This document shows, piece after piece, positions 4,101 through 46,580 of a DNA stretch of 64,000 bases. Position 1 is the first letter of the stretch, and the number at the start of each line of letters is the position of its first letter. Origin of the DNA: Candidatus Woesearchaeota archaeon (GTDB taxonomy: Archaea > Nanobdellota > Nanobdellia > Woesearchaeales > JAGVYF01); NCBI GenBank assembly GCA_041650315.1, contig JBAZLJ010000002.1, positions 65,599 to 129,598 of the forward strand, read 5' to 3'. Made by a program: the position numbers and the translations under genes. Below the pieces are notes generated by a model, which saw only the letters and a program-made list of their open reading frames with translations, did not search any database and had not been told where the DNA came from.

Positions 4101-4114
4101 ATTAGCTTTTGTTT

Positions 4115-29912: not shown

Positions 29913-30153
29913 ATATTATCTGGCGTGGTTTTGCATTTACCTGCCGATAGCCATGAGCTACAAATATCTGGTCAGGGATGAGATAACCACACTGCTCGGC
30001 ATCATCGTGATAGCATTGGCAGTAATACCAGTATTCCTTGCAGTCTTCAAAGACAGACCTAGACTGGACTTGAACTATTCAAGACCCGGCGAATTCAATG
30101 TGCCAGCTCCAGTCATGAGGACAGCGATAAAAGTAATGGGGTGGGACAAATGA
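29890..30153 (+). CDS. small two-TM membrane protein
   Basis: ORF in tight overlap with its neighbours. Confidence 0.4.
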   Translation: MKMKAGIKYYLAWFCIYLPIAMSYKYLVRDEITTLLGIIVIALAVIPVFLAVFKDRPRLDLNYSRPGEFNVPAPVMRTAIKVMGWDK

Positions 30154-30485
30154 ACCTGAAAATATTATGGGACACGTTACTGCTCATGATGGTTGTCGGC
30201 ACAGTATTCATGCCCGCCGTCTCCGCAGTGACTTTCACAGGACCGACCGCAAGCGACATCAGCACCTTCAACGACATACTCTCGCCATTGATGAAATTGT
30301 ACAACTTCGTGAAATACGCAGCCACAGTCTTAGCTGTGCTGTATCTCGTATTCGCAGGCATATCTTTCATCATGGCGAGCAATGACCCGAGACAGAGAGA
30401 ATTAACCAAATCAATGGCGAGCTACGTCTTGGTAGGATTGGTAGTAGTCTGGGCTGCGCCGATGATGGTGGAGTATCTGCTGTGA
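30141..30485 (+). CDS. VirB2/TrbC/TedC-like conjugative pilin candidate
   Basis: Signal peptide ending AVSA, then two hydrophobic helices separated by a short charged loop (SNDPRQRELTKS). About 90-aa mature length. Confidence 0.45.
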   Translation: MGQMNLKILWDTLLLMMVVGTVFMPAVSAVTFTGPTASDISTFNDILSPLMKLYNFVKYAATVLAVLYLVFAGISFIMASNDPRQRELTKSMASYVLVGLVVVWAAPMMVEYLL

Positions 30486-31390
30486 GAAAACTTATTTTTC
30501 TCTTATTTTTTGTACTACTCATCATACCATCAGCTTATGCTTCAAGCAACAGCGATTGGTGGGATGTCGTGGACGAGTTCTATGACATCGCAGACTACTT
30601 CATCGAGAAGATTGTCGAGTTCATGTTCGCTTTGATACAAGGTGCGACAAGACCATTCCTATCATTGATTGAAACATTGCTAAAATCCGAAGTATCTATC
30701 ACCCCTTTTCAGAGCCTATGGCGTTCATTGGCGTACGTCGTCAGTATGTTCTACGGCTTGCTTTTCCTTTACGCAGGATTGCAGTTCATCACCTCCGGCA
30801 ATGATCCAGCGAAACGGACAGATGCAAAGACGTGGCTCAAGAATACATTTGTGATGATTGTCCTAGTCCAAGCTTCGTACTATCTTTACCAACTGACAAT
30901 GCAGATATCATCAGCTCTGACAACAGCGATACTGAAAAAGTGCTGGGTAAGCTTTTTCACGATAACCTATGACGTTTTCACTAATCTCAGCATGGAGTAT
31001 ATGTTCATCACGTTGTATATCATAATCCTGCTAGTTACAATCCTATTGTTGGCAATCCGTTACATCTTCGCATCAATCGGCGTAGTCTTTGCCCCGATAG
31101 GAATCTTTCTCAGCTTCATCCCACCATTGCAGAGCTATGGCAAATTGATAATCAACAGCCTAGGAATAATGGCGTTCATCCCATTCGTCGATGCAATCAT
31201 CATCCTCGCATCATCGCAGTTATTATTCACGCCAGTCTTTTCAAGCATGCAGATTCTGGTCAAGATAGTGGCGTTTTTGATAATCGATTTCTCCACAATC
31301 ATGCTCTTCAGATTGGCAGTCACCAAATCCGCATTCGATTCAGTCACAGGCGGAGTCACAAAAGTGATCAAATACGCATCATTGCTCTAA
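30482..31390 (+). CDS. VirB6/TrbL/CedA-like polytopic membrane protein
   Basis: 302 aa with at least 6 TM helices, translationally coupled to the pilin-like gene and the VirB4-like gene. Confidence 0.45.
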   Translation: MRKLIFLLFFVLLIIPSAYASSNSDWWDVVDEFYDIADYFIEKIVEFMFALIQGATRPFLSLIETLLKSEVSITPFQSLWRSLAYVVSMFYGLLFLYAGLQFITSGNDPAKRTDAKTWLKNTFVMIVLVQASYYLYQLTMQISSALTTAILKKCWVSFFTITYDVFTNLSMEYMFITLYIIILLVTILLLAIRYIFASIGVVFAPIGIFLSFIPPLQSYGKLIINSLGIMAFIPFVDAIIILASSQLLFTPVFSSMQILVKIVAFLIIDFSTIMLFRLAVTKSAFDSVTGGVTKVIKYASLL

Positions 31391-31391
31391 T

Positions 31392-34300
31392 ATGTCCTAC
31401 GAAATCCCTGCGGAACTTGAATACAAAGAGATAATCATGTTCGGACTTACATTCATGCAGTTGCTCTACGCAATGGTTTTCCTAGTGCCTATTGCCATCA
31501 TCCTGAAATCCGGCATCGATTACACAATCCAGGCAGTCATCATCGCATTGCTCGTCGGAATCGCTCTCATGTTCATGTTCTTCAATCTCACAGAGAAGCT
31601 CAAGGAGATGTGGCAATACATGAAGCTGAAGACCAAGTACCAAAGATACCTAGAGACTGACCAGAAAGTCGCCGTCCTAAAGATAAAGCCGATTAATTTC
31701 ACGATAAAGACTGACGAGGAGAAGCAAGTCATCATCAAGACGTTCAGGAAATTCCTTAACTCGTTGAACTTTCCGATACAGATACTCATCAAGACAGAGC
31801 CGTTGCTATTGGACAATTATCTGAACCAACTGCATAAGAAATCCTTGAATAAGGAGCTGGTCGCTGGCATGAAGAAACATCTTAGCGAGACTCTGAGTGA
31901 TAAAGTCTTGAACAAGACGTTCTACATAATCATCCCAGAGAAAACCGGATTGGAGAAAAGGCAGTGCATCGAGAAGCTCAAAGACCTCAACCTCAAAGTC
32001 GATGAAGCCAAACTGCCTGCAGAGAAATATTACAAAATCGATATAACGTCGGCAGACTTCAAGATAAAGCAATACCATACGATAATAGCGGTCAGAGGCT
32101 ATCCGAGATTTGTCGAATCCGGATTCCTCGACAAAGTAGTAACTTCGCAGGGCTATTTCGATATAAGCATCCATATCGAGCCGGATTCGATTGAGCATAC
32201 CATGGTCACGCTCAATAAAGAGTTGCAGAAACAGAAAGCCGATCTCTATTCTGCCGAACTCAAAGGCGTAGTATCGCCATCTCTCGAAATCAAGTACAAA
32301 GACACAAAGAGCATCCTTGAGCAGTTGCATAAAGGCGAAGAAAAGCTGTTCAATGTTTCAGTCTATGTCGAATGCAGAGCATCGACCAGAGAAGAACTGA
32401 GAGACCTTGTGGCGAAAATCCAGTCCGAGCTTAATGCGTTAATGATGGATTCCAAGATTCCTACTTATCGGATGATTCAAGGCTTGAAATCAGTCTTGCC
32501 GTCAGGCATTGATGCGTTGAACATCAAGCGAAACATAACAAGCAACGCCCTTTCGGCATTCTTTCCTTTCACATCCCCATTCCTTGAAATAGATGATGAC
32601 GGCATCTGGCTCGGCTTGAATAAGAACAACATTCCGGTAATAAAAGATGTATTCAAGCAATTCAATCCCAATGGTTGTATCTTAGCATCATCCGGCTCAG
32701 GCAAATCATACACCGCTAAACTAATCATAAGCCGTTATATTTTGAACGGGACTAAAGTCATAGTCATAGACCCCCAATGCGAATATAAGCAACTCGTGAA
32801 GCATTTTAACGGGCAATGCGTTGAGATTAGCAGGACTTCTGAGACCGTGATTAATCCATTAGACCTAGTAGGACACGAATATCCAGACAAACGTCTGTCA
32901 TTGATGGGCTTGATTCCAGTCATGTTAGGCGAACTGACGGAATCGCAGAAATCATTGATGGACAAAGCCATAACCATGGCATACCAAAAGAAGGGCATCA
33001 GCATAGATGAAGCCACATGGAGCAATATGTGTCCCATGATGTCCGATGTGCTCGATGCCCTCAAAACAATGGAAAGAGGGGCAAATACCTTTGAGAAAGT
33101 CTCCATTAAGTCTCTGATGAACAGGGTAGAGATGTATGTCAATGGCGTATTCTGTTTCCTCAATAAGCAGACGAAGCTCGATTTCAACAACAATTTCGTA
33201 TGCTTCGATATATCCAAGATGCCTAAATTAGTGCAACCAGTGATGATGTATCTGATTCTGGACTATGTCTACATGAAGATGAAGGCGGACATAAACCGCA
33301 AACTGCTTGTCATCGATGAAGCATGGACGCTTCTAGGCAGAGCAGAGGATTCCAATTACATATTCGAGATAGTCAAGACTTGCAGGAAATTCAATATGGG
33401 GCTTCTCTTAATCAACCAAGAGGTTGAAGGATTATTGACCTCAAAAGCCGGAAAGTCTGTGCTTGCCAATACATCATACACATTCCTGATGAAACAGAAG
33501 CCTGCTGTCATCAAAGATATCCGAGACACGTTCAATCTCAGCCCTGCAGAAAAAGACTATCTCCTGACTGCTTCCATCGGCGAAGGGCTGTTGATAATCG
33601 GCGATGAGCATACTGAGCTTAAAGTGGTCGCATCTGCTGAAGAGCATAAGCTGATTACAACCAATGCGGATGAACTATTGAAGCTCGAAGCAAATGCTAT
33701 GAACCCTGCTTTCAGGAAGGACGTGGAGATCAAGCTGGACTTGTCCAGCGATGTCTACCGGAAAGCGGATTTGAGCGAGGATGATGTGAAGTATTTGGTT
33801 AGGAACGGATATGCTGAAGAGCAATGCAGAGCGATAGAGGCGAAAAGACAGGAAGCATATCTCGTGAAGAAAAAGAGATGCGAAAGTATGCCCCACGTTT
33901 TCTTAGTTTGGGAGATTGCGAATTATCTAAAAAAGTATACTTCTGAAATCAAAACTACATCAACATCTGTGGCAGATATTATTGTCCAAACGCCAAAGGG
34001 CGAATTCGCTATTGAGATTGAAACGGGCTATTTCTTGAAACACAACAAAGCAGAATTATTTGATAAAGTAAAGGCATTGAATGAAAAGTTCGGCTCAAAT
34101 TGGTGCTTTGTTGTGACTGACAATGATATAAGAAAACAATATAGGCGATTAGGGAGAACATATACACGGATGGATTTATCGAGATTAGTGCAAGAAATTC
34201 CCCTCTCACCCCCTCAAATTCTGGCGTTTAAAGCTTTATCCCCCTCAAACTCTGCGAATTCGCCCGCAGGACTTACCATTCATACAACCAACACGGAGGT

Positions 34301-34484
34301 ATCTAAAATGAACGACCAACAACCTAAGAACGATAAAAACGAACCGACTAAAGAATACAACGATCAACCGATTCTCGAAACGCGAATTAGCTTGAGCAAG
34401 GATGGGAAATATGTCATACACAAGACAATCATCACAGACATAAAACCGATTGCATATATGCAAAAAGTACTGGGCTCAGAATGA
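31392..34484 (+). CDS. VirB4/TrbE/CedB-like conjugation ATPase with N-terminal TM anchor and C-terminal extension
   Basis: Walker A ASSGSGKSYTAK and Walker B LLVIDEAWTLL. 1030 aa. Confidence 0.7.
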   Translation: MSYEIPAELEYKEIIMFGLTFMQLLYAMVFLVPIAIILKSGIDYTIQAVIIALLVGIALMFMFFNLTEKLKEMWQYMKLKTKYQRYLETDQKVAVLKIKPINFTIKTDEEKQVIIKTFRKFLNSLNFPIQILIKTEPLLLDNYLNQLHKKSLNKELVAGMKKHLSETLSDKVLNKTFYIIIPEKTGLEKRQCIEKLKDLNLKVDEAKLPAEKYYKIDITSADFKIKQYHTIIAVRGYPRFVESGFLDKVVTSQGYFDISIHIEPDSIEHTMVTLNKELQKQKADLYSAELKGVVSPSLEIKYKDTKSILEQLHKGEEKLFNVSVYVECRASTREELRDLVAKIQSELNALMMDSKIPTYRMIQGLKSVLPSGIDALNIKRNITSNALSAFFPFTSPFLEIDDDGIWLGLNKNNIPVIKDVFKQFNPNGCILASSGSGKSYTAKLIISRYILNGTKVIVIDPQCEYKQLVKHFNGQCVEISRTSETVINPLDLVGHEYPDKRLSLMGLIPVMLGELTESQKSLMDKAITMAYQKKGISIDEATWSNMCPMMSDVLDALKTMERGANTFEKVSIKSLMNRVEMYVNGVFCFLNKQTKLDFNNNFVCFDISKMPKLVQPVMMYLILDYVYMKMKADINRKLLVIDEAWTLLGRAEDSNYIFEIVKTCRKFNMGLLLINQEVEGLLTSKAGKSVLANTSYTFLMKQKPAVIKDIRDTFNLSPAEKDYLLTASIGEGLLIIGDEHTELKVVASAEEHKLITTNADELLKLEANAMNPAFRKDVEIKLDLSSDVYRKADLSEDDVKYLVRNGYAEEQCRAIEAKRQEAYLVKKKRCESMPHVFLVWEIANYLKKYTSEIKTTSTSVADIIVQTPKGEFAIEIETGYFLKHNKAELFDKVKALNEKFGSNWCFVVTDNDIRKQYRRLGRTYTRMDLSRLVQEIPLSPPQILAFKALSPSNSANSPAGLTIHTTNTEVSKMNDQQPKNDKNEPTKEYNDQPILETRISLSKDGKYVIHKTIITDIKPIAYMQKVLGSE

Positions 34485-34543: not shown

Positions 34544-35716
34544 TTGAAAAAAAGAATTCAAATTTCGGAAATAATGCCGATATTATCTAAAGCGATTAAT
34601 CAAAATAAATTAAGTCCTAATGTCCCTCATTATTATACCAGAATATTTACTTATTTTGATGAAATTGAAATTCCTGAAACATCATTTATGCAGACATTAA
34701 AATCCATATCATCCATCCTTAACGAAATAGATCAACACCACTTTAAAAGTCCAGAAGACTATTTTTTGTATATTATTAGTATTTGTGAACATATTACTTC
34801 AAAGATTTTTCAAAAAAGTATTAATCAAAAGGAGATATATGAAAAATATTCCACTCAATTTAATCAAATCGTAGATTTAATTAAAGAAATATATTCAAAA
34901 TTTGAAGATTCTTTTGCACAATCTCGAACAAATGAATATAATTCTTTCAAGGGGAATAATACTTCTTCCAAAATTGAATTAGAATTTGATTTAACTAGTG
35001 AACTGGACATTAAAAAAGCAATAATCAAAGAATTTGTTCTCCCCTACAAATATGAGATTAAAAAAGATAAAGTAATTAATAGGGGATATGTCCCGATAAT
35101 TTATCAAGGAAAAATAATTTATCAAAGTGAATCCAAATCATTTAGAGGGCACATAATTGAAAATGAAATCACCCCTATGGGATATCCCTTTTATGGAATA
35201 GACATAATTCATCCTAAAAATGAAAATGAGTTTATAGAATTTGTCAATGAATTAATTGCCATATTTAAACATAATATTGAACAGAGAAAGGGATATAAAC
35301 TATTATGGAATGGAACAAAAAGTAAGCCTGAAGAAGAAGTACAAATCTTTTTTGATAATCAAATTATAGAATTAGCCCAAAGAAGAGGCATTGAAGTCTC
35401 TCGAGAAAATGAAACGGGGCGCGGTCCAGTTGATTTTAAGTTTATTGAATCAGTAGAACATAAAGCACATCTTGAAATCAAAAAGGCGTCTAATCCTAAA
35501 TTAATAAAAGGGTTATCTAAACAATTAGTTACTTATTTAAAAGCGGATAAATTAGATATAGGTTTTTATCTAATAATTCAATTTTTTGACAATGAGGATA
35601 AAATTATCAATACGTTTAAACAACAAATTTCAAAATTAAGATTAGATAATAATATAAAGATATTTACTATATTTATTGATGCAAGAAGAAATAAAAAATC
35701 TGCATCAAAATTGTAA
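34544..35716 (+). CDS. hypothetical protein with candidate C-terminal PD-(D/E)xK nuclease motif
   Basis: Very AT-rich. ...ENETGRGPVDFKFIESVEHKAHLEIKKAS gives a D...ExK arrangement. Confidence 0.4.
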   Translation: MKKRIQISEIMPILSKAINQNKLSPNVPHYYTRIFTYFDEIEIPETSFMQTLKSISSILNEIDQHHFKSPEDYFLYIISICEHITSKIFQKSINQKEIYEKYSTQFNQIVDLIKEIYSKFEDSFAQSRTNEYNSFKGNNTSSKIELEFDLTSELDIKKAIIKEFVLPYKYEIKKDKVINRGYVPIIYQGKIIYQSESKSFRGHIIENEITPMGYPFYGIDIIHPKNENEFIEFVNELIAIFKHNIEQRKGYKLLWNGTKSKPEEEVQIFFDNQIIELAQRRGIEVSRENETGRGPVDFKFIESVEHKAHLEIKKASNPKLIKGLSKQLVTYLKADKLDIGFYLIIQFFDNEDKIINTFKQQISKLRLDNNIKIFTIFIDARRNKKSASKL

Positions 35717-35717
35717 A

Positions 35718-36707
35718 ATGGCTGAAAAAATAGTTAATCCCGAAACCAAAGAAATAATTATCAAGTGCAGTAGTGATTTAGAATTAAATAGCTATTCTAA
35801 TTTTTACGATGCATTTGGAGATTTAACTATTACTGAAATAGTTAATAATTTTAATATAGTTAGATATAGTTTATTTGAAAGATATTATTTGTCCGATAAA
35901 AGCTTTAAAGAAACAATTAAAGTGATGAAACAAAATATCCTAAAGCTTCAATCGCAATGGGATACTTTTACACCATTAAAACCTAGAATAATTGATATCG
36001 AAGATTTTAATGCGGGATTTAAATTTACTATTATTAAAAATATTAAAAAGAAAATTAAGGATAAATTAGATAATCTAGAGATATCAAGAAAAGGTACGGA
36101 TTTTGCATGTGTTGTTTATATCTATAAAAAAGAAAATAATAAAGTGGGGATTTTATTTTCGAATTATAATTATAGTAATTCTAAATTACTTGATTATCTC
36201 TCTAAAGAATTGGTTGAAAGGCTTATTTTCGAAAATCTTAGGCCTGAGAAATATAAATTAATTGAATTGGTAGATCGTTTAAATAAAGTAATTGGAATTA
36301 AATTTGACCCTGGGTACTTAGTCCCAAAAAAGATTAAAGATAAATTACAAGAACAAGATAAAATTAGATTAATCTCTAATTCTATAAAATTAGAGAAACA
36401 AGAAATTAGATTATTAGATTTAAAATCATTTGAAGAGTTTAATATTCTTATCTCTGATATTAAGAATAAAAAACGTGATATAGAGCAATTAGAGGGGTAT
36501 TTAGATTTAATTCGAATTAAAATTGAATCTTTGGATAAAGGCACTAAAACAGTAATTACGGTTTGGTCAAATAAATTAAATGTTGAAAGTAAAGGGGAAT
36601 TTGTTTATTTAATGGGTTTTTTAAAACAATTATTTTTAAAACAGAAATCAAATCATAAAAAAGAGATTATACAAAAAACAATTAAATCTAGTCTTATCGC
36701 TCATTAA
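35718..36707 (+). CDS. hypothetical Lys/Asn-rich protein, apparently co-operonic with the preceding gene
   Basis: ORF. Start placed at the ATG two nt after the upstream stop. Confidence 0.35.
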   Translation: MAEKIVNPETKEIIIKCSSDLELNSYSNFYDAFGDLTITEIVNNFNIVRYSLFERYYLSDKSFKETIKVMKQNILKLQSQWDTFTPLKPRIIDIEDFNAGFKFTIIKNIKKKIKDKLDNLEISRKGTDFACVVYIYKKENNKVGILFSNYNYSNSKLLDYLSKELVERLIFENLRPEKYKLIELVDRLNKVIGIKFDPGYLVPKKIKDKLQEQDKIRLISNSIKLEKQEIRLLDLKSFEEFNILISDIKNKKRDIEQLEGYLDLIRIKIESLDKGTKTVITVWSNKLNVESKGEFVYLMGFLKQLFLKQKSNHKKEIIQKTIKSSLIAH

Positions 36708-36932
36708 ATCAAGTTTTATAGTTTAAATTCATATTCCCCCATCTTTTTCTCTCTCTGCACCTTTTCCAAGCATATTTTCTCTTTTCGGCACGTTCTGAAG
36801 TTCATTGTGTTTTCCCTTCCGCATATCTTCACAAGGCATACGATTTGTGGCAAAAGGTCGCTTCTCGGCTAAAACATCATGACTTCCTCTCTGCAAGGCA
36901 CCTCTAGAAAAAATGCATGGAGGTGCATTAAA

Positions 36933-37034
36933 ATGATAGAAAAAGACCATTTTTGCGAATATGAAATAGCTGGAGAACTGATTCTCTGCGGAATATGCGG
37001 TGCAGAGCACCACATTAAGGGTGATGTCCAATGA
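36933..37034 (+). CDS. 33-aa zinc-finger-like peptide (C..C....C..C..HH), translationally coupled to ardA
   Basis: ggaggt ribosome-binding site. Its stop overlaps the ardA ATG (ATGA). Confidence 0.3.
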   Translation: MIEKDHFCEYEIAGELILCGICGAEHHIKGDVQ

Positions 37035-37534
37035 GGATTGCCATCACCGATTTGAAAGATTACAATGAAGCCATTCTCAGATTCGAATGGCTTAATCTCG
37101 AAAACTGCTCAACTGCAGATGAAATCGGATGTTTCATCAACAGATTCCTTGCAAAACGGAGCAGGGAAACCGGTGAACTCCATGAAGAATGGTTCGTAAC
37201 AGATTACGAAGAATTCGTTGATCTCGGTGAGTATCCTTCTATCGAAGAACTTGCCGAAGCAGCCAAACTTAGCAAACTGCATGGCTGGGAAGCGGTTTCA
37301 GCATATTACGGCTATAACCGCTCCTTTGACGGTTTTGATGATGCTTATTCTGGCATATATGAAAGCGAAGAGGATTTCGCCTATGATATAGCTCACGAAT
37401 GCTATAGCGAGAAAGAACTAGGCAAACTTGAGCTGTATATCGATTGGGGGAAGTACGCTAGAGATTTGTTTATTGGCGATTACTTTAGCGAAAAACTTGA
37501 ATCATTCAAAATTGCAGTATTTAGACGAATTTAG
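37031..37534 (+). CDS. ardA: ArdA-family anti-restriction protein
   Basis: 167-aa acidic protein. N-terminal IAITDLKDYNEAILRFEWL, central EWFVTDYEEFVDLGEYPSIEEL and C-terminal YIDWGKYARDLFIGDYF align to the ArdA proteins of conjugative transposons. Confidence 0.7.
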   Translation: MRIAITDLKDYNEAILRFEWLNLENCSTADEIGCFINRFLAKRSRETGELHEEWFVTDYEEFVDLGEYPSIEELAEAAKLSKLHGWEAVSAYYGYNRSFDGFDDAYSGIYESEEDFAYDIAHECYSEKELGKLELYIDWGKYARDLFIGDYFSEKLESFKIAVFRRI

Positions 37535-38007
37535 GGCAATGAATATCCTGCATCAAAATAAGCTTGCATATCTGCAGGAACTCTTTGTTTGATTCTTTTT
37601 GAATCTTGTAATTTACCAATTTTAAATCCGTATTCTATTAAATTCCACCAATATTTATTAGAATTAATTCTAGAAACGGGTCCCCAAGCAGTTGAATCTT
37701 CAGTTAGATCTTTCAAATATTCTGGAACTTTATCTGATTTTTTAAATGTGATTCGTAATTCAGGTCCGAATTTATCTACCGAATCTAATTTTCTATAATC
37801 ATCACTAGAAGCTACATCTTCGCCAGATTTAGATTTATATTTAACTTCAAAGGCATCTTCTGATTTTTGAGGTACTTCTGCCCATAATTGAGTTTTTCTT
37901 TTAGAATTTGCTAAATAACCTACTGATTCAAAAAAAGCCTCATCTTTTTTCTTCCAACCTACTGGTTTTTTTAAACTACCATCCGGATTAAATTCATATA
38001 AACCCAT
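37531..38007 (-). CDS. hypothetical protein, last gene of the methyltransferase/helicase operon
   Basis: ORF; no motif recognised. Confidence 0.35.
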   Translation of the reverse strand: MGLYEFNPDGSLKKPVGWKKKDEAFFESVGYLANSKRKTQLWAEVPQKSEDAFEVKYKSKSGEDVASSDDYRKLDSVDKFGPELRITFKKSDKVPEYLKDLTEDSTAWGPVSRINSNKYWWNLIEYGFKIGKLQDSKRIKQRVPADMQAYFDAGYSLP

Positions 38008-38015
38008 TATTTCAC

Positions 38016-38678
38016 CTATTTAGATAAATATTTAATAAATTCTTCAACTGAATGAACTTCATCATCATCAAAATCAAATGATACCATCTTCTCAATACCG
38101 CCCCTTATTTCGTATTCTTCAGCAATGTAAGTTTTTTTAAGATCTATTTTAATAAAATAAGTTTCTTTTTCTTTATCACAAGTATGGGCTACCCATATAT
38201 CCATTTCAGGATGTTTTTTCATATACTCTATTTTATCCGGTCTTAACCATAATTCCTTACCACAACCGATTTTGCCAGTAACTTCTAAATAAAGAGTCTT
38301 TTTGCCGAATTTCATAATTACATCTGGTCCACCTTTCTCGATTGGATGTTTAAGTATAATTTTAGTGGAATCTGTGCCAAATCCAATATCTTCAAAAGTA
38401 ACACCTTTAATTTTATCTTGAATTAGTGAAAATACTTGTTTTTTTCTTTCTTGTTCTTTTTCCCAAGAATCTTTATATTTTAATTTCCAAACATAATCAA
38501 TAACATCCGAAAGTTTTTTAGTATCTATAACTGAACCCATTTCTAGTTTAATTCCGCTCAAGCGTTCAATATCAGGGGTCCGAGTGATATATGTTGCCTT
38601 AAAGAATTTCCCATCTACATAGATACTAATTCTATCTTTATTGCCCGTCTGAATTCTTATATCAGTTATTTTGCTCAT
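38016..38678 (-). CDS. hypothetical protein (weak PD-ExK-like pattern GPDVIM...LYLEVTGK)
   Basis: ORF overlapping the methyltransferase stop by 17 nt. Confidence 0.35.
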   Translation of the reverse strand: MSKITDIRIQTGNKDRISIYVDGKFFKATYITRTPDIERLSGIKLEMGSVIDTKKLSDVIDYVWKLKYKDSWEKEQERKKQVFSLIQDKIKGVTFEDIGFGTDSTKIILKHPIEKGGPDVIMKFGKKTLYLEVTGKIGCGKELWLRPDKIEYMKKHPEMDIWVAHTCDKEKETYFIKIDLKKTYIAEEYEIRGGIEKMVSFDFDDDEVHSVEEFIKYLSK

Positions 38679-41610
38679 TATTCCAATTTTCTATAAGATT
38701 GATATCATTAGATTCTAGATTATATAATTTGTAAATCTGTGAATTTAATTTATTTTCGAGAACTAATTTTTCTGTAGATTCTTTAGATTTTATAGCCAAT
38801 ATTTCATCTACCAACTTGGAGAATTTCTTTTGATCATTCAAATCAAGTGCAGGGATAGGTATTTTCATTAAATAGATTCCATCTAAATGAATTGTAAGAT
38901 TTGCTGAATTTAATATATATCTATAAAAGAAATAACTAACTACTCTCGAATTTAATATTGCTAAGATATACCTAGGGTCAAATTTTAATTCATCAAAGGA
39001 AACAATCACGCACCCACCCGAAGGCACATTTTTATCAGTATTGATTATAACACCCCTTGGATAAAGAGTTCCAAATTGAGTTATAACTACTAATTGTTTA
39101 TGCTCTAAGTAAGGGTTAGTATTGGTCTTATCTTTTGCAGAATATGCATCATAATCAAGATAAAATCGTTTTATATTCTTACCTCCTAAATAATAATATT
39201 TACCATTAGGTGTAATTTCCTTATCTAAATCAATGCCTCTATCACCATCAAGAATATTTGCTTTAAATTTGCTTATCTTTGAATAAATATCATCATAATA
39301 AAGAATCCAATACCCTTTTTCAACAGCCTCATTTATCGGCAAGAAACAGGTTTTATCTTCTCTCATAGAGTAGCATTTTATTTGATAATTATTTTTAATG
39401 CATTTCTGATAAAATATGATTATCATTTCTAAAGTAACGCCTTGGAATTGACCATATGCATCAGTAATTTCACGCAAAACTGAATTAGATTGGATGAAAT
39501 TTCGGATATAGTAATATCCCTCAGACCTAGAGATTGAATGCGGTACAATCATTGAAAATTGCCCATTTTTAGCTAATAAAAAATAAGTTCTTTCTAGAAA
39601 CATGGTCGCTAGATTGAATTGATTCTTAAATCTAGATTTGGTATTATGTGTTATAGATAAAATCTTGTATATCTCCTTATATTTCTCATTTAAATCATAA
39701 CAGACATAAGGGGGATTTCCAATAACTACATCAAATCCACCATTCAGTATAATATGCCCAAAATCGATTCTCCAATGGAATACTTGAAGCTCTGAAAATT
39801 CTTTATCAGATATTGGGGGATTCTTTCGAATAGCTTTATACTTTGCAGTTTGTTCCTTATGCGCTTTGCCATAATCAATGCCCGCTAATTTAAAATTAAT
39901 ATATTCTAAAAATGAGGGGGTTACTGCATGATAAATCGATTTTCTAATTGTCTCGATAATACTCCTTAGGTTTTCTGCTTTCAAACCATGTGTTTTTCTA
40001 TAAATTTTATACAAAATATAATATGCCTCAATATAATCATTTAATTTATAGGTTTTCAACAATTCTCTTGCTTTTTTAAGATCAGTACCTTCGCTATTTT
40101 CAGAAAAAGCGATTAAACCAGTGAATATCCCATCAACCTTCTCGGTAAGTGGCGTATTCATTGGCATTTGAACTAATTTCTCATCGAGCCAACCTACCAA
40201 ACTATTTCCCACTTTAAGATTATATTCAATATTCGGCAATGCTTTTATTTCATGTTTATTATCTTCATAATCTGAGATTAACCATAGCCAGAGTCTTAAT
40301 TTAGAAATTTCAATTGCACCAGCTAAAAAATCAACGCCATATATATTTTCAGTGATTATATCTAATTTTAATTCATAGAAATTTTTCTTTTCTTTTAATT
40401 CATATAATAGTCTTCTTTTAAGTCCCAATAATACTTCAGATGCTTTAATTAAAAATGCCCCTGAGCCACAGGCGGGATCTATTACTTTGATTTCATCAAG
40501 TATTTTTAGAGCATCTTTCATATCTTTTTTATTTTTGGATTCTATTAATTCCTCAAAAGAATGGAATTTGCCTAGCTTATCAAATAGACATGGAAGTATA
40601 GTATTATTAGAGATATAATCAGTAATAGATTCAGGCGTATAATATACCCCCTTTTTCTTTCTTTCAGTTATCTTTTTGACCGCATTTTCAGCTTCTTTTT
40701 CAAAACCTTCACTTTCCCATTCAACAACGCTTCTTTCATAGACATGACCTAATATTTCTGGAGTTAATATTTTTTCTTCATTCTCCTCTATAGCTTTAAC
40801 ATCTTCAATTATCCAATGGTAACTATTCAAAAATTCAAATATTTCTCCCCATTGTTCAGAATCTAATTTTATATCCAAATCTTGTTCTAACACATCAGGT
40901 CTGAATAAACCACCATTCAAATAAGGCACAACTATCTGATAATCGCCTATTTCAAGTAGGTTCTTCTCTTGAGAATTAAATAGATGGAACAATTTTTTAA
41001 GATTCTGTAAAAAGTTACCCTTTTTTAATAATATCTTAGTAAATAAACTTTCACCAGAAATTTTACCCCCATCATTAAATTTTATAATTCCCTTGTGGCA
41101 TAAGAAATATATAAAGAAAAACCTATCAAATATTTTCTGAGCAATTAGATATTTATGTATTGGTTCAACATCATTTTTTATATTTTGAACAAGAAGATTT
41201 CTTTTAAGCTTAAAAGCTTCATAAAATAATCCCGAGATATCTTTTGATTGGAATAAATAGTCTAAATTAGTGATATTCTTTAGTTTATCTACTTTTGAAG
41301 GATTATTTTTTGTTCGTTCAGAATAAATGAAATGTTTTGTTTCGCCAAAGCTTCTAAAAAATATTAGTTTAGTATCTATGCAGATTATACAATAACTTAA
41401 ACCTCTATCCATTAAGAAATGATCTTTGATCTCTTTAATCTTTTCTTCATCGTATACTTCATATATGACTAAAAGCTTTCGCTTATCTATTCTAAAGAAG
41501 ATTCCTTCTTTGTATTCTTCATCAGAATATTCTTTTTCTTCATTAAACCCTTTTTCTTTTAAGAATTCTATTAATCTTTTCTTTCCACCCAATATCTCTT
41601 GAACTTCCAT
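38662..41610 (-). CDS. gamma-class N6-adenine DNA methyltransferase with N-terminal domain and C-terminal target-recognition domain (Eco57I/PglX/LlaGI-methyltransferase-like)
   Basis: Motif I VIDPACGSGAFL and motif IV GNPPY. 982 aa. Confidence 0.75.
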   Translation of the reverse strand: MEVQEILGGKKRLIEFLKEKGFNEEKEYSDEEYKEGIFFRIDKRKLLVIYEVYDEEKIKEIKDHFLMDRGLSYCIICIDTKLIFFRSFGETKHFIYSERTKNNPSKVDKLKNITNLDYLFQSKDISGLFYEAFKLKRNLLVQNIKNDVEPIHKYLIAQKIFDRFFFIYFLCHKGIIKFNDGGKISGESLFTKILLKKGNFLQNLKKLFHLFNSQEKNLLEIGDYQIVVPYLNGGLFRPDVLEQDLDIKLDSEQWGEIFEFLNSYHWIIEDVKAIEENEEKILTPEILGHVYERSVVEWESEGFEKEAENAVKKITERKKKGVYYTPESITDYISNNTILPCLFDKLGKFHSFEELIESKNKKDMKDALKILDEIKVIDPACGSGAFLIKASEVLLGLKRRLLYELKEKKNFYELKLDIITENIYGVDFLAGAIEISKLRLWLWLISDYEDNKHEIKALPNIEYNLKVGNSLVGWLDEKLVQMPMNTPLTEKVDGIFTGLIAFSENSEGTDLKKARELLKTYKLNDYIEAYYILYKIYRKTHGLKAENLRSIIETIRKSIYHAVTPSFLEYINFKLAGIDYGKAHKEQTAKYKAIRKNPPISDKEFSELQVFHWRIDFGHIILNGGFDVVIGNPPYVCYDLNEKYKEIYKILSITHNTKSRFKNQFNLATMFLERTYFLLAKNGQFSMIVPHSISRSEGYYYIRNFIQSNSVLREITDAYGQFQGVTLEMIIIFYQKCIKNNYQIKCYSMREDKTCFLPINEAVEKGYWILYYDDIYSKISKFKANILDGDRGIDLDKEITPNGKYYYLGGKNIKRFYLDYDAYSAKDKTNTNPYLEHKQLVVITQFGTLYPRGVIINTDKNVPSGGCVIVSFDELKFDPRYILAILNSRVVSYFFYRYILNSANLTIHLDGIYLMKIPIPALDLNDQKKFSKLVDEILAIKSKESTEKLVLENKLNSQIYKLYNLESNDINLIENWNNEQNN

Positions 41611-44600
41611 TTATTTCTCAATAAAGCTAATTGCAAATAATGATTCTTTGTTAGTATTTAACTTTTGCTGAACCCCTAATTTTGTGAAACTATCTTTAAG
41701 TTCATTAATCCATTGTTTAACTTTAGTATTGGTTATTTCTTCTTTTAATTCAACTTTTATTTTTTTAACCACTTTTTCAGTTGTACTCCCGCAATTATGT
41801 CTAGTCAATTCAAGAGTATCTTCTAATTTTGAAATTTCAGAATACAATTCAACAAGTTTTTCAGAAGTAATATAATCTAAAATATTATTTATTAATTTAT
41901 CAACATTATCATTGAAATAATGCATCCTTAGATGTTCTTTTCTTTTATTACTTAAATACTCTTCAAATGAATTAAGTTCGTGTTTAAAAATTCCTTCGAA
42001 ATCAATTCTTCTACTTAGTTCATCAGGATTTTGATTAGACAAAATTTCCTCGTTATATGAATCAGTATTCTTATAGACAATACTTAATCCCTTTTTACCT
42101 TCGAAACTAGTATAATTCTTACCTGAGGGGATATTGACTTTAGTTAGATCTTCCTTCTTAAGATTATACTTTTTAATTGCTTTTTGCAAAAATATTAAGA
42201 TGGGTTTTGAATAATCTAAAGCAATTTCTAAATCTTTAAAATTGCCTTCTCTTAAATTACCCCTTATTTTTTGAAGTACTTCTATGTACATCCTTTTGTC
42301 TTTAGCTCTTCTTTCCGATAAAAGCTCTTTTTCTGCTTCAAACCATATCCTATATTCAACTCCTACAAATCGAATTATATCCTTAATCCTTAATTCCATT
42401 GTTTCAACTAGTTTTAGTTCAATATCTAAATCATCATCCGGTCTAAAATTCAGAATCTCAATTTCTTTTGGAGCATCAAGTCTTGTTGCTCTACCTATTC
42501 TCTGTATTATTCTTACGGGATTATAGGGGATATCAAAATTTATTACTAAATCCGCACCGCTTATATTGAATCCTTCGGAGAGTGTATCTGTAGTTATTAA
42601 TATTCGAAGTTTATCTTTAGATTCATTAAATTTCTCGATGATTGTTTGTTTATTTTCAGTATTAGAATCAACAAATCTTATCTCATCGGGATGAATTGAA
42701 TTTTTAAAGTATTCTTTAATCGCTTTCAATGTATCTTTATATTCGGTAAATATCAGTATCTTTTTACTTTTATTAGAATTGAATACTTGACTTAATTGAT
42801 TTATTTTTTGGTCATTTTTGAATAATACTCCTGATTTTTCCTTTAAGAAGGGCTCTAATTTTTTTATTTGTTCATTTATCTTAGCTACATCAATTTTTAA
42901 TTCATTGAGTATTTTTAGATTACCAGATCCTTTACCTTCTTTGATTTTATCGATTACCTCTGAAAGCTTGTTTTTATAATCTAAATCAAAGTTGATATCT
43001 ATATCATTAAAATCCGAACCAAAATTAACATCAATCTCATCTTCATATTCTTCTTCCTCTAGATATTTAGTGTTTTGTTTCTCAATGGCAGTTAATATCA
43101 TAGTGCTTTTCTTGGATAATCTCTTAAGAGTAAGGTAGTAAGAACTGATATCACTTTCAAATCTTTTATATAATATCCATTTGAAAAACCCGCCTAAACG
43201 GACACCTTTTTCAGGGTCTAATATTCTTAAATGGGCGGCAGATAAGCTTGTGATAAAGTCTACAATCCCATTCACAATGTCTTTGTATCGTAAATCTAGC
43301 TCATATTTTATTTCTTCAATCTCGGGATCCTTTATTTTAGTAATATCAACATTTGAAAATGTCTTTAATTCGTCTATATAATCGGAAGAAGTTTTGATTG
43401 TCTCCCTCGTTGATTTGACAAACATCTCTCGTTCAATTTCTTCCTGTACCTTAGACAGATTCTCTTTTTCAGAATCAGTTAATTCTTCATATTCTTTATT
43501 TTTGAATAAGTTAATCAAATCACCAAGTTCTCTAACCAAAGTATCAAAGAGCAAGTTTTGCCCATGCCTATAGAATAATTTAACCAAATCCAAAAGATTA
43601 TCTAAGCTGGTATTAATTGGTGTTGCAGTTAAGAATAATATCTTAGAATTACCATTTTCATCGATTATCTTCTTTAGATTTCTAGTTCTATAAGCATCAG
43701 GATTCCTATAGTTATGAGCTTCATCGATTATAATTAACCCATAATTCTTTGCATATTTCTCAATTTTAAACATCTCGGGTCTTTTTTGCAAATCCCCCAT
43801 AGAAACCAGATTAACCTTATCATAAATCTCAAATTCTTTCAAATATCTAGGCCATTGGTCTTCATTATGGGCTAAACCCGCTGGAACTAGAATCATTACT
43901 TTTTTATCATTATTCAAGAAATATTTGGCTATTTGAGATGCAACATATGATTTCCCTAATCCTACTGATGAAGTTAAGAAACAACCCCTATACCCCTTAC
44001 TATTAAAATTATTTAACACCCTAATGAAATCTACATATTGGAATCGAAGTAATTTTGATTTTTTAAATTCCTCAAATAAATAATCAGCGTTTAGATACTT
44101 AATCAAAATCTTCAAAAATTCTTTCGGTTCAATATACATGAATGTATTTTCTAATTCTTCTTTAAACTTTGAATTTTCAATTGCCTCTACAATTGCATCA
44201 GCAACCTTCAGTTTTTCAAAATCTTCTGTTCCTTTCTTCCAAAGACTTTCAAACCATAATTCAACATCTTCTAAATCCTTAGGTTCAGTAATAATGGTGT
44301 TCAGCTCAGTATTTCCGATTAACCCACTAGGAGTCAAATTAGAAGAACCAATTACTCCCGCATTATACTTTTGAGATAAATTCGATGTGGAAATATCCTT
44401 TAAAAAAAGATATGCTTTACTATGCAATCTTTCAGGATTTTTTTCATCACCAAAATAAACCCTTACTTTAAGTGTCTTATATTCTTTGATTAATTGATAA
44501 AATAATTTTATCGCAGGTTTAGTTTGTTCATTTATTTGAAGTTCATTAAATTTCTCTTTGAAAGCTTTGATCAGCATATCTTTAGTAGGCTTTGTAGTTT

Positions 44601-44808
44601 CATAACCCATTAAAATCTTAATTTCTTTAAGATCTTTAAGAGAATTAATAATCTCAACTAAACCTTCAATATAGAAATAACCTACTGCACATTTGAAACC
44701 TTCTGAATCTTGAGCAATAGTTTTGAGAACTTCCTTCATATTAAGAGGATTTACTTGTTTATTATCAATTATTTTCCCATATCTTAATAGATTCTCAAAA
44801 TCAGTCAT
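41611..44808 (-). CDS. fusion of PLD-family (Nuc/BfiI-like) nuclease domain and SNF2/SF2 helicase
   Basis: N-terminal HKD-type motif LHSKAYLF...GSSNLT. Helicase motifs I GLGKS, II IIIDEAHN, III LTATP, VI QRIGRATR. 1065 aa. Confidence 0.7.
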   Translation of the reverse strand: MTDFENLLRYGKIIDNKQVNPLNMKEVLKTIAQDSEGFKCAVGYFYIEGLVEIINSLKDLKEIKILMGYETTKPTKDMLIKAFKEKFNELQINEQTKPAIKLFYQLIKEYKTLKVRVYFGDEKNPERLHSKAYLFLKDISTSNLSQKYNAGVIGSSNLTPSGLIGNTELNTIITEPKDLEDVELWFESLWKKGTEDFEKLKVADAIVEAIENSKFKEELENTFMYIEPKEFLKILIKYLNADYLFEEFKKSKLLRFQYVDFIRVLNNFNSKGYRGCFLTSSVGLGKSYVASQIAKYFLNNDKKVMILVPAGLAHNEDQWPRYLKEFEIYDKVNLVSMGDLQKRPEMFKIEKYAKNYGLIIIDEAHNYRNPDAYRTRNLKKIIDENGNSKILFLTATPINTSLDNLLDLVKLFYRHGQNLLFDTLVRELGDLINLFKNKEYEELTDSEKENLSKVQEEIEREMFVKSTRETIKTSSDYIDELKTFSNVDITKIKDPEIEEIKYELDLRYKDIVNGIVDFITSLSAAHLRILDPEKGVRLGGFFKWILYKRFESDISSYYLTLKRLSKKSTMILTAIEKQNTKYLEEEEYEDEIDVNFGSDFNDIDINFDLDYKNKLSEVIDKIKEGKGSGNLKILNELKIDVAKINEQIKKLEPFLKEKSGVLFKNDQKINQLSQVFNSNKSKKILIFTEYKDTLKAIKEYFKNSIHPDEIRFVDSNTENKQTIIEKFNESKDKLRILITTDTLSEGFNISGADLVINFDIPYNPVRIIQRIGRATRLDAPKEIEILNFRPDDDLDIELKLVETMELRIKDIIRFVGVEYRIWFEAEKELLSERRAKDKRMYIEVLQKIRGNLREGNFKDLEIALDYSKPILIFLQKAIKKYNLKKEDLTKVNIPSGKNYTSFEGKKGLSIVYKNTDSYNEEILSNQNPDELSRRIDFEGIFKHELNSFEEYLSNKRKEHLRMHYFNDNVDKLINNILDYITSEKLVELYSEISKLEDTLELTRHNCGSTTEKVVKKIKVELKEEITNTKVKQWINELKDSFTKLGVQQKLNTNKESLFAISFIEK

Positions 44809-44885: not shown

Positions 44886-45314
44886 TTAAAACTCATCCTT
44901 TAATCTTTTAATCAGTTCCGCCCAATCCTTATACTCCACAACCTCATCCGCAGCAGCCTTCAGGAATGCGGATTCTTTGCCTGATTCGCACATAGCGACA
45001 ACACGAAGCCCTAATGCCTTGGCATAGCCCATCTCGAAATAGACACCATTGGCTTTCTCAGTGATATCCGCTAAAATCATATCGCAATCTTTAAGTCCCG
45101 CAGTAGCTCCTTCAATCACTTCAGGAAGCGAAGTCTGGACTGCGCCCCACTTCTGCACATCCCTAAAGAAGATGAATGTAGAGTGTCCAGCAGATTCTAA
45201 AGCATCGCTAAGCTCAGTCAATTTCTTCTTCAATATTGTAGTATCCGCATCCTTAAACTTGTACGCTATGTAGATTTTCATTCTTTTGACCTCCATAAAA
45301 TCGTTTATATGCAT
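44886..45314 (-). CDS. nucleoside 2-deoxyribosyltransferase-like (SLOG-fold) protein
   Basis: MKIYIAYKF... and GVYFEMGYAKALGLRVV resemble the NDT active-site region (catalytic Glu in F-E-x-G-Y-A). Confidence 0.45.
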   Translation of the reverse strand: MHINDFMEVKRMKIYIAYKFKDADTTILKKKLTELSDALESAGHSTFIFFRDVQKWGAVQTSLPEVIEGATAGLKDCDMILADITEKANGVYFEMGYAKALGLRVVAMCESGKESAFLKAAADEVVEYKDWAELIKRLKDEF

Positions 45315-46578
45315 TCTGCACTAATCTGACCAATTCAGGCAATTCTATATCAGATAAGCTTGCTTTATTGCTCAATTGGTATTTGATGAACCTATACAAC
45401 TCTTTCTCAGTCTCTGGTATAGTATCGTGTATATGTGAATATCTGTCTAACTCCTTATATCCCTTGGCATTAAGCTCATTGTATAAAGGTGTGCCTGGGA
45501 AAGCTCTGATGACTGAAAAGCAGACTATGTCTGGCTTGATCTCTTCAGCGAACTGCAATGTCTCCTCGATTTCCTGCAAAGTCTCTGTAGGCATACCGAA
45601 CATGAAATAAGCCTTTGTCCTGATTCCATACTTCCTGCAAACTGCGATAGCCTTGCGAGAATCTTCAAGAGTAATGCCCTTATTCATCAATTTCAAAACC
45701 CTAGAACTTCCTGACTCCAAACCGAAAGAAATCTTGTAACAGCCATTTTTAGCCATCAAATCAATTGTATTTTCATTGAACCTAGCGATAACATCTGCCC
45801 TAGACAGAATCCTCCATTTCACAACCAATTTGCGCCTATTCAACTCATGGATGAATGTAAGCACTCTTTCTTCAGTATGCGCAAAATTGTTATCTATGAA
45901 ATGGAAGTCATGAATCCCGCTAGAGACAATATGCTCAATCTCATCGACAATATTCTTGATACTGCGTTCCCGCACAACAGAGCCGGTCGGTTTGGAAGCT
46001 GAACAAAATACGCAGTTATATGGGCAACCACGTGAGCCCAGAATGACCGCAGAATATTTTTCATTAACAAATAAACTTCTATCAATGAAAGGTAAAGAAT
46101 CCAATTCCATAATCAAATGCCTATCAGGGTTATGCACTATCCCAGAATCCGAAAGATAGCTTACGCCATCGACATCTCTGCCATGTGCGATAAGTTCTTT
46201 CAAAGTATCTTCGCCTTCGCCACGGACAAGAGCATACGCATTGGTTTCACGCAATACTTTTTCAGGGAATAAAGTGGCATGAATCCCACCAACAATGATT
46301 TTGATATCATCAAGTTCAGCAATAATTCCTTTAATCAGTTCGTAAGTCGGACTGAGTATAGTGAAACAAGCATAATCAGGCTTGAACGATTTAACTGAAG
46401 AAACAATCTCCGCTGGAGACAAGCCTAAAGCTTCGCCATCAATTAATTTGATAGTATGCCCCGCATTCTGTAATATAGTCGCCATGTACCCTAGACCGAT
46501 TGGCGGCACTGTGTCGTATTCTTTTTTCTTATCTAACGCATAGTCTCTCAATGGAGAGCTCACAAAGACAATTCTCAT
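45253..46578 (-). CDS. B12-binding-domain radical SAM enzyme
   Basis: N-terminal cobalamin-binding-like Rossmann domain plus CPYNCVFC (Cx3Cx2C). Confidence 0.7.
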   Translation of the reverse strand: MRIVFVSSPLRDYALDKKKEYDTVPPIGLGYMATILQNAGHTIKLIDGEALGLSPAEIVSSVKSFKPDYACFTILSPTYELIKGIIAELDDIKIIVGGIHATLFPEKVLRETNAYALVRGEGEDTLKELIAHGRDVDGVSYLSDSGIVHNPDRHLIMELDSLPFIDRSLFVNEKYSAVILGSRGCPYNCVFCSASKPTGSVVRERSIKNIVDEIEHIVSSGIHDFHFIDNNFAHTEERVLTFIHELNRRKLVVKWRILSRADVIARFNENTIDLMAKNGCYKISFGLESGSSRVLKLMNKGITLEDSRKAIAVCRKYGIRTKAYFMFGMPTETLQEIEETLQFAEEIKPDIVCFSVIRAFPGTPLYNELNAKGYKELDRYSHIHDTIPETEKELYRFIKYQLSNKASLSDIELPELVRLVQNAYKRFYGGQKNENLHSVQV

Positions 46579-46580
46579 TT

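Follow-up and report, generated by a model that had tools for sequence, protein, structure and literature searches.

How is an antirestriction gene deployed when the mobile element that carries it resides in an archaeon? ArdA is a textbook means of Type I restriction evasion by bacterial conjugative elements, and the question is raised here by a locus in a stretch of 64,000 nucleotides (nt), referred to below as the window, of contig JBAZLJ010000002.1 from a Candidatus Woesearchaeota archaeon. We observe that positions 36728-37534 of the window make up a compact, horizontally mobile module with three parts, namely a hairpin leader, the gene of a mini-protein and ardA. Judging from its sequence features, this is probably a module for the establishment phase, in which the hairpin gates the translationally coupled production of a zinc mini-protein and ArdA. 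The three-part module appears to be undescribed in the literature searched, whereas the ArdA call itself is routine: NCBI already names the exact protein ArdA (MFA5142174.1, identical in sequence, ‘MAG: antirestriction protein ArdA [Candidatus Woesearchaeota archaeon]’, where MAG stands for metagenome-assembled genome) and, consequently, the gene call is not new.

The initial annotation had read the acidic 167-amino-acid (aa) product of positions 37031-37534 (plus strand) as an ArdA, and the profile search by which this assignment could have been refuted places the protein in the family. The Pfam profile PF07275 (ArdA) matches residues 5-153 (profile positions 3-147 of 155) with 95.2 bits against a gathering cut-off of 27 (E=7.9e-27), far beyond chance, and PHROG 2059, ‘anti-restriction protein’, matches residues 1-166 with E=6.8e-22. 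Additionally, a profile made from 20 members of the clade to which the protein belongs matches ORF18 of Tn916 (structure 2W82; also 7BTO and 7BTR) with E=3.5e-6 over residues 48-151. In this comparison, HMMER pairs LxxYIDWxKYARDL of the clade with LQNYIDYQAYGRDL of 2W82, by which the alignment of YIDWGKYARDLF with YIDYQAYGRDL that had been put forward earlier is reproduced. The protein contains 37 Asp and Glu residues and 18 Lys and Arg residues, with an isoelectric point (pI) of 4.44.

Residues of the dimer interface are conserved as well. Y137, I138, D139 and D146 have been described in the dimer-interface ‘antirestriction motif’ of the Tn916 protein (McMahon 2009, PMC2731889), and none of the 20 clade members deviates at the corresponding Y136, D138 and D145. 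An essential VF motif has been located in the middle β-strand of domain 3 of ArdA (I160-F161 in Tn916; PMC2731889). The clade has a V163-F164 pair in a predicted strand at residues 161-165, with F164 invariant and V163 at least 90% conserved among the 20 members; the alignment with 2W82 itself ends at residue 151. The AlphaFold2 (AF2) model of the protein has a predicted local distance difference test score (pLDDT) of 94, and its elements follow the order β-α-β-α-β, helices and then β-α3-β-β, as expected for three small domains. Its top matches in BFVD, a collection of predicted viral structures, are all antirestriction or ArdA-like proteins (template modelling scores of 0.58-0.63, probability 1.0), and the full-length tblastn matches among plasmids, at 31-35% identity, are all annotated as ArdA and come mostly from cyanobacterial plasmids, but also from Legionella. 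Membership of the ArdA family is thus established at the level of sequence, and we infer the biochemical activity from it.

The comparison with Tn916 ORF18 (2W82; complexes with EcoR124I, 7BTO/7BTR) shows both how far the likeness goes and where it ends. The two proteins share the Pfam family, the length (167 and 165 aa), the acidity and the YID...Y.RDL motif; the VF pair near the C-terminus of the archaeal protein may be the counterpart of the essential motif, its secondary-structure elements are predicted in an order compatible with three domains, and both genes are carried by elements that integrate, close to a VirB4-like gene (PMC2731889). By contrast, the two are remote in sequence, the host is here a DPANN archaeon, ardA lies downstream and not upstream of virB4, and it is preceded by a coupled zinc mini-ORF (open reading frame) and a hairpin, neither of which turned up ahead of the 110 distant ArdA genes.

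The archaeal protein belongs to a clade of its own. We found 46 homologues, nearly all of 166-167 aa, which are 52-92% identical and under clear purifying selection; those with a label come from Nanoarchaeota or Woesearchaeota MAGs, except for one in a bin called Auribacterota. At the DNA level, 15 distinct loci of the clade were compared, the window included, and 110 distinct distant ArdA loci (29-40% identity, from gut bacteria and phages) served as the negative control for the mini-ORF. Scans of metagenomes and viruses mostly returned bacterial or phage ArdA genes of that same 29-40% identity. The neighbourhood of the module differs from locus to locus, and the relatives are found in variable, island-like contexts.

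The second part of the module is a short ORF immediately upstream of ardA. Both ORFs were found where the initial annotation had placed them, the first running from the ATG at 36933 to the TGA at 37034 (plus strand; 33-aa product MIEKDHFCEYEIAGELILCGICGAEHHIKGDVQ) and the second from the ATG at 37031 to the stop at 37534, so that the stop of one and the start of the other share an ATGA. Every locus in which ardA follows the mini-ORF directly has this overlap; the exception in arrangement is L167, in which an extra 49-codon ORF lies between the two and the direct overlap is lacking. The extra ORF begins with MTKVRIAIQDF, resembling the N-terminus of ArdA. Each of the two genes has a Shine-Dalgarno (SD) sequence. 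That of the mini-ORF, GGAGGTGC (36919-36926, plus strand), ends 6 nt ahead of the ATG at 36933 (5-8 nt in relatives) and is present at every locus of alignment A2, with the variant AGGAGGTAA in L169 and L171. That of ardA, AGGGTGAT (37018-37025, plus strand), has the core GGTGA, of which GGTG is invariant in alignment A2, and it is embedded in the final codons of the mini-ORF. An SD-like 5-mer is found upstream of 12 of the 56 ORFs in the window, as against 3 of 56 controls. A mechanical ORF list gave a 51-aa version of the mini-ORF that starts at 36879; this start is disfavoured, as relatives have stops upstream and the SD precedes the ATG at 36933, and the JGI/ENA annotation likewise calls the 33-aa product. 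The GC fraction of the ardA module is 0.43, as against 0.22-0.30 in its flanks.

Upstream of the mini-ORF, conservation among the relatives reaches about 200 nt and then ends, and this conserved leader is folded into an imperfect hairpin of 237 nt (36728-36964, no strand assigned). In the fold, the distal arm starts with TTCATATTC (36728-36736) and the proximal arm ends with GAATATGAA (36956-36964), that is, with codons 8-10 of the mini-ORF and the last base of codon 7. The mini-ORF thus supplies the 3′ arm with its SD, its AUG and its codons 1-10, and the 5′ arm lies about 160-230 nt upstream. Within the distal arm, an anti-SD (TGCACC, 36756-36761, plus strand) is complementary to the mini-ORF SD and pairs with GGTGCA in the folds; several relatives have A:T in place of a T:A pair of this anti-SD. 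The SD can also form a local helix with another anti-SD, the proximal one (GCACCTC, 36898-36904, plus strand); according to RNAalifold, this helix is kept in 8 of 9 sequences and displays no compensatory changes. Between these sites, the inner helix joins a 5′ block (GGCACGTTCTGAAGTTCATTGTGTTTTCCC, 36787-36816, plus strand), conserved in sequence in all relatives, to a 3′ block (GGCTAAAACATCATGACTTC, 36867-36886, plus strand), near-invariant in alignments A2 and A5; 93% of its cells are paired and there is covariation at two columns. The A-rich GCTAAAACAT in the inner 3′ block could be a TATA-like box.

Several lines of evidence support the hairpin. When the window sequence is folded as single-stranded DNA (ssDNA), z is -4.5/-4.2 for the minus strand, and the plus strand gives -2.2/-2.7. 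Seven relatives fold with z from -1.2 to -8.7, all with the same hairpin architecture; on the minus strand, the relatives span -1.7 to -8.7, and the architecture was recorded in 8 relatives. When the duplex between the arms was compared with 200 shuffles, z ranged from -3.7 to -8.8 in 8 of 10 loci. Covariation was assessed on a MAFFT alignment with a majority-vote structure, using slid partners and 500 shuffles as controls. Consensus hairpin cells are paired in 85.8% of cases, as against 46-58% when the partners are slid, 14 pairs are altered on both sides (4-9 when slid), and the covariation score is 0.251 compared with 0.139 +/- 0.016 in the shuffles, none of the 500 reaching 0.251. For instance, TTCATATTC/GAATATGAA is replaced by TTCAAATTC/GAATTTGAA, a Tyr-to-Phe codon change in the mini-ORF being matched in the distal arm, and further compensatory changes are seen in CTCACA/TGTGAG and in CTAACAT/ATGTTAG versus TCGCAT/ATGC(T)GA. 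A search with nhmmer found the hairpin once per clade locus that holds the upstream region (L172 does not have it), and the 1.77 Mb of window and loci contained no further match.

Other identities were considered for this structure and rejected. An integron attC site, inverted repeats of the kind found in miniature inverted-repeat transposable elements and a terminator do not agree with a 3′ arm made of the SD and start of a conserved ORF, with the lack of a GTTRRRY core at the base or with the lack of a T-run after the hairpin; a terminator scan stayed at chance level. A minus-strand ORF at 36729-36950, proposed by one gene caller, was also discarded, as none is called in the relatives.

The peptide encoded by the mini-ORF had been described as a C4/HH zinc finger. 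This description is wrong, as there are three Cys and the conserved putative zinc ligands are His6, Cys8, Cys19 and Cys22, while His26 and His27 are not conserved; the mini-ORF itself, on the other hand, proved to be a real gene. The mini-ORF is intact in 11 of the 15 clade loci (the window, L005, L006, L011, L012, L013, L014, L167, L168, L169 and L171), where ORFs of 31-50 codons encode K[DN]H[FY]CE[YF]E-x3-[ED]L[IV][FL]C-x-x-CG. Its core is HxC-x10-CxxCG, and the four ligands together with Gly23 are kept in all intact copies. Within the core of 20 codons, pairwise ratios of nonsynonymous to synonymous substitution (dN/dS) lie between 0.07 and 0.29, and synonymous sites are almost saturated. 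When 1.8 billion representatives were searched exhaustively with phmmer, only two true relatives came up, both of this clade, plus low-complexity noise; a search with the 51-aa version found only itself, and no such mini-ORF is present upstream of any of the 110 more distant ArdA genes. The mini-protein is therefore an orphan micro-protein specific to the clade, usually kept and occasionally lost. A Pfam match to Zn_ribbon_recom was rejected (E=0.37).

Taken together, these features suggest the following mechanism. The start region of the mini-ORF, with the SD, the AUG and the codons up to the tenth, would be sequestered by the distal arm or, alternatively, by the proximal anti-SD and, because it is base-paired, ribosomes would load only on an open leader. 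In RNA ensembles of the full leader, the probability that the SD-AUG region is unpaired is 0.25-0.52, and the region is mostly paired whatever 5′ end is assumed, because the proximal anti-SD can also pair with it. As the ardA SD lies within the last codons of the mini-ORF, ArdA would then be made by termination-reinitiation after translation of the mini-ORF; with this anatomy in place, synthesis of ArdA is most likely slaved to that of the mini-protein. By analogy with its family, ArdA would dimerise through the Y136-I137-D138...D145 interface (PMC2731889), and the acidic dimer, a mimic of DNA, would sequester Type I enzymes as the unmodified element enters a new cell and would thereby protect it. 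What the hairpin does in this scheme is a separate matter. That it acts at the mRNA level as a translational mask, which would keep ArdA low on read-through transcripts in the established state, is the proposal that we favour, with somewhat less than even chances.

Several results weigh against this hairpin-gated, translationally coupled arrangement or against its parts. Regarding the structure, in 9 of 10 loci it is the minus (template) strand that has the more favourable minimum free energy (MFE), the z-score is stronger on the minus strand in 6 of 8, and a 306-nt plus-strand segment folded as RNA does no better than shuffles (z=-0.67), which together argue against a purely RNA-level hairpin. 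Regarding the mini-protein, the frame is broken in L009 (9895-10004) by an A-run that is 1 nt shorter, the mini-ORF of L002 is degenerate, with the CxxC part gone, and in L173 (4148-4690) the hairpin remains, whereas a deletion has removed the zinc knuckle and joined the five initial codons to ArdA (180 aa); L172 (1-750; ArdA 58% identical) has neither peptide nor hairpin, and its ardA follows a radC-like gene. The variants in L173, L172 and L009 show decay of the module and, as the mini-protein is lost in 3 of the 15 loci, it must be regarded as accessory and not essential for ArdA. The AF2 model of the peptide alone is of low confidence (pLDDT 57) and is not used as evidence. Regarding ArdA and its target, a Foldseek search of the PDB with the ArdA model did not return 2W82 (best E=2.4), a single-sequence phmmer search of the PDB missed ArdA ORF18, so that the clade profile was needed, an NCBIfam scan gave no match for ArdA or the peptide (and only weak RecX-N-like matches for the two downstream ORFs), and no Type I restriction-modification (R-M) system was detected among the window ORFs scanned.

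The main alternative or complement to an mRNA mask is that the hairpin does in an archaeon what the Frpo/ssi single-stranded-DNA promoters do in bacterial leading regions. According to this possibility, the incoming template ssDNA would fold and recreate a duplex promoter, giving a burst of mini-protein and ArdA before synthesis of the complementary strand, which would imply ssDNA conjugation in DPANN archaea. There is precedent, as long imperfect hairpins just upstream of the ardA operon have been reported for F, ColIb-P9 and thousands of leading regions (PMC11541004, PMC8708921), and Frpo/ssi promoters are examples of structured sequence upstream of anti-restriction or establishment genes (PMC11541004). 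Apart from the greater stability of the minus strand, this proposal is favoured by the conservation of the inner stem in sequence, and not only in pairing, which includes an A-rich GCTAAAA(A/C)AT block, and by the lack of conserved sequence upstream of the hairpin, because of which a promoter within the hairpin is plausible.

Other results speak against it. Counts of G.T wobble cells on consensus pairs (22-29 on the plus strand, 15 on the minus) favour the plus-sense strand, and the MFE bias could arise because the plus strand is C-rich, a composition that by itself can improve minus-strand folding. The evidence on the folding strand is contradictory, with MFE and z-scores on one side and wobble counts on the other. 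A scan for sigma-70-type -35/-10 pairs gave 3 sites compared with 4.8 expected, although this bacterial consensus may not apply to an archaeal host; the sole sigma-70-like site in the stem, TAGAAA-18-TAAAAT, overlaps the start codon of the mini-ORF, downstream of the SD. No match to positions 36724-37034 was obtained by blastn (word 11) in 72,556 PLSDB plasmids, and neither a relaxase nor an oriT could be recognised among the sequences of the element. Furthermore, the hairpin covers the SD, the AUG and coding sequence exactly, as a translational mask needs and a single-strand promoter does not. A promoter of this kind is therefore a real but rather unlikely possibility.

The structure here shares with the Frpo/ssi elements of F and ColIb-P9 an imperfect hairpin of 200-330 nt right upstream of an anti-restriction gene, on an element that bears a type IV secretion system (T4SS), with a predicted template-strand fold (PMC11541004, PMC8708921). 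It differs from them in having no sequence similarity (PLSDB blastn) and no -35/-10 boxes above chance, in a host that uses TBP/TFB promoters, in extending over the SD and the start codon of the first gene up to its tenth codon, and in being found in one copy per locus and not in several. The EGeRS1 leaders of pLS20-type plasmids, for which the question of ssDNA or RNA is likewise unsettled (PMC8708921), are also conserved, structured sequences of a few hundred nt just upstream of the ribosome binding site of establishment or anti-restriction operons (PMC8708921). By contrast, EGeRS1 has about 325 nt plus extensions, is branched and occurs as five repeats per plasmid in Firmicutes; the comparison of sequence was made by PLSDB blastn, which was negative.

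A complete archaeal leading-region establishment cassette can also be conceived, in which the 237-nt palindrome on the incoming ssDNA would rebuild a TBP/TFB promoter in the manner of an archaeal Frpo, fire a burst of zinc mini-protein and ArdA and, once double-stranded, silence read-through mRNAs. We regard this scenario as improbable. If it were true, it would be the first evidence of single-strand conjugation among DPANN archaea, it would place single-strand promoters outside Bacteria, and the zinc mini-protein would become a new anti-defence cofactor or an auto-regulator.

As for the mini-ORF, it could be thought of as nothing but a leader (an upstream ORF) whose translation opens the structure and delivers ribosomes to ardA, the peptide itself being functionless. 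The conserved ATGA overlap and the embedded ardA SD would be expected from such a leader, the SD can explain the conservation of the C-terminal ‘RG[DE]’, and the peptide is lost or truncated in L002, L173 and L172 while ArdA remains intact. However, a functionless peptide is difficult to reconcile with the low dN/dS at saturated synonymous sites, with the strict retention of the ligands and of Gly23, or with the many synonymous changes, such as those in the Glu-Leu codons (GAA CTG, GAA TTA and GAG CTT). L167 (7706-8004) and L168 (703-849) have in common an in-frame insertion of 17 codons after codon 4, which preserves the downstream frame; the insertion holds a small inverted repeat, TCTCAGAAA...TTTCTNAGA. 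A pure leader is, consequently, a fairly remote prospect. Because it is under purifying selection, the mini-protein is expected to act as a protein, perhaps as a small zinc-dependent regulator, a role put forward in the initial annotation, or as a partner within the module, and most likely not as a mere leader peptide.

There is an archaeal system that makes such a role conceivable. Brz, a small zinc-finger protein of Halobacterium salinarum, regulates transcription of the downstream bop gene (PMC2253796). Brz and the CPxCG mini-proteins share with the peptide described here a very small size and a CxxCG knuckle, and they are encoded in the same orientation directly upstream of the associated gene. 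The mini-protein of the module differs in its length of 31-33 aa, in its single HxC...CxxCG site and in having two phmmer relatives, and the likeness is one of size, motif and gene arrangement.

A further explanation concerns not how ArdA is made but what it is for. It might mainly temper the restriction systems of its own island while the R-M system of the element establishes itself, with the enzymes of the recipient as a secondary target. The gene content of several relatives leaves room for this: in L006 (1-9000; hsdM, hsdS, GmrSD, hsdR and radC) and in L167 (600-7100; hsdS and hsdR) the module is directly downstream of Type I hsdR, in L173 it is beside an N6_N4 methyltransferase gene, in L005 such a gene is 3 kb away, and in L009 an HsdM_N fragment adjoins it. 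The first two are independent relatives in which an anti-Type-I gene adjoins a complete or partial Type I R-M locus. In the window, the module is 1.1 kb from a pair of minus-strand genes (38662-44808; GC 0.25-0.30) that encode a 982-aa N6-methyltransferase of the Eco57I/MmeI type with a TaqI_C specificity domain and a 1065-aa protein with PLD(HKD) and SNF2-helicase domains. Their best PADLOC matches are Type IIG restriction endonuclease-methyltransferase/DrmMI and the candidate ‘C3a139 HKD+Snf2’/DrmD, respectively, and the pair looks like a two-gene, restriction-like defence system on the same element as ArdA.

Nevertheless, this neighbouring system is not of Type I, and the module, with a GC of 0.43, stands apart in composition from the R-M-like block (0.25-0.30), which suggests that the two were acquired separately. 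It has also been reported that anti-defence genes and methyltransferases cluster on incoming elements without mutual regulation (PMC11541004), and the proximity of the module to R-M genes fits islands of anti-defence and defence genes on mobile DNA. Tempering of the island's own restriction is therefore held to be very unlikely as the main function of ArdA.

Finally, that ardA was acquired recently from bacteria or stems from faulty binning, and is not used by the archaeon, can be dismissed almost entirely: one relative's contig is binned as Candidatus Auribacterota, with a weak match to an outer-membrane beta-barrel nearby, and the nearest named plasmid homologues are bacterial, but the window lies within a Woesearchaeota-labelled contig of 1.0 Mb with archaeal markers on both sides of the element, other members of the clade are on contigs labelled Nanoarchaeota or bearing a gene for deoxyhypusine synthase or the PF04414 tRNA-deacylase, and the clade has the range of identity and the clear purifying selection given above.

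The contig of the window has 1,007,146 bp and is assigned to Candidatus Woesearchaeota at NCBI, where FtsZ, a VirB4-like protein, a methyltransferase and glutamate dehydrogenase are listed on it. An archaeal host, assumed in the initial annotation, is supported by these labels and by an intron-bearing tRNA, diphthamide synthase, a tRNA-ribosyltransferase of the TGT family and a HerA/Mre11-type pair. The tRNA (13344-13445, 102 nt) was recognised by Rfam and missed by ARAGORN, and it apparently contains an intron, consistent with an archaeal host.

A tRNA-Thr gene (GGT anticodon, 53369-53441, minus strand) has a putative attR at its 3′ end (53368-53382), and the same 15 nt, AAGCCTCAGGGGAGA, which consist of the last 14 nt of the tRNA plus one base, recur exactly once, at 28899-28913 (plus strand), as a putative attL; the estimated chance expectation of such a repeat in the window is about 0.014. 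The repeat bounds an integrated element of about 24.5 kb. A tyrosine integrase gene (51981-53228, minus strand; PF00589, E=8.7e-22) abuts the tRNA. At the other end, on the plus strand, there are genes for a T4SS pilin of the VirB2/TrbC type (30141-30485; PF18895, E=1.1e-12; PF04956 at 27.0 bits, slightly short of the 27.9 bits required), for a polytopic membrane protein resembling VirB6/TrbL (30482-31390; weak TrbL_3 and T4SS_pilin matches) and for a VirB4-like ATPase of 1030 aa (31392-34484; P-loop_TraG 9.5e-24, DUF87 3.9e-17, AAA_10 1.5e-11). At its N-terminus the VirB4-like protein carries a membrane segment with weak likeness to PrgI, and some 230 aa extend beyond the ATPase part at the C-terminus; in this extension, a nuclease-like motif (ADIIVQTPKGEFAIEIETG) was noticed by eye.

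Transfer genes of the VirB4 type had been reported beside ardA and taken as a sign of conjugation. The genes are indeed there, with other T4SS-like genes, just upstream of ardA, on an integrated element with an integrase next to tRNA-Thr; on the other hand, neither a relaxase nor a coupling protein came up when the ORFs of the element were compared with Pfam and PHROGs, and several of these ORFs have no match and could encode divergent archaeal equivalents. For this reason, ‘conjugative’ must still be taken as an inference. Lacking a recognised relaxase, the gene set resembles the relaxase-less T4SS clusters of archaea or of patescibacteria (PMC12102498).

These findings reach beyond the single locus. 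A conserved, well-maintained ArdA clade on T4SS-bearing DPANN elements, of which we found no discussion in the literature searched, argues for bacteria-like DNA exchange across restriction barriers. Its clade-specific packaging provides cloneable hypotheses on the timing of archaeal anti-defence genes, and the mini-protein adds a new orphan family of micro-proteins to the anti-defence repertoire.

Other features of the window deserve a brief mention. Between virB4 and the module (34544-36707) there are two genes with a GC of 0.22-0.28, one for a DUF8371/phrog_30194 protein of 390 aa and one for a 343-aa protein without family; the ArdA module is in fact an islet of 0.43 GC with AT-rich insertions on either side. 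Downstream, two orphan genes on the minus strand converge on ardA (37531-38678): the product of the first has 158 aa, its gene overlaps the ardA stop by 4 nt and it forms a singleton cluster, while the 220-aa product of the second has a weak match resembling the RecX N-terminus (E=8e-6, far below cut-off). Beyond the restriction-like pair, minus-strand genes at 44886-48340 encode a nucleoside 2-deoxyribosyltransferase-like protein, a B12-binding radical SAM enzyme (PADLOC candidate PDC-M51A), a protein of 379 aa that ends in a winged helix (weak CARF/CasR-like matches) and a HAD hydrolase; the element may carry this cluster as cargo that serves in defence or in the modification of nucleotides or DNA. 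Elsewhere in the window, a tRNA-Phe gene is followed by a low-GC block (0.295) with ORFs of 554 and 745 aa without a Pfam match, the whole (2395-6352) being what may be a second integrated island, and a minus-strand ORF with a LAGLIDADG domain (53580-54191) lies just outside the putative attR and the tRNA-Thr gene.

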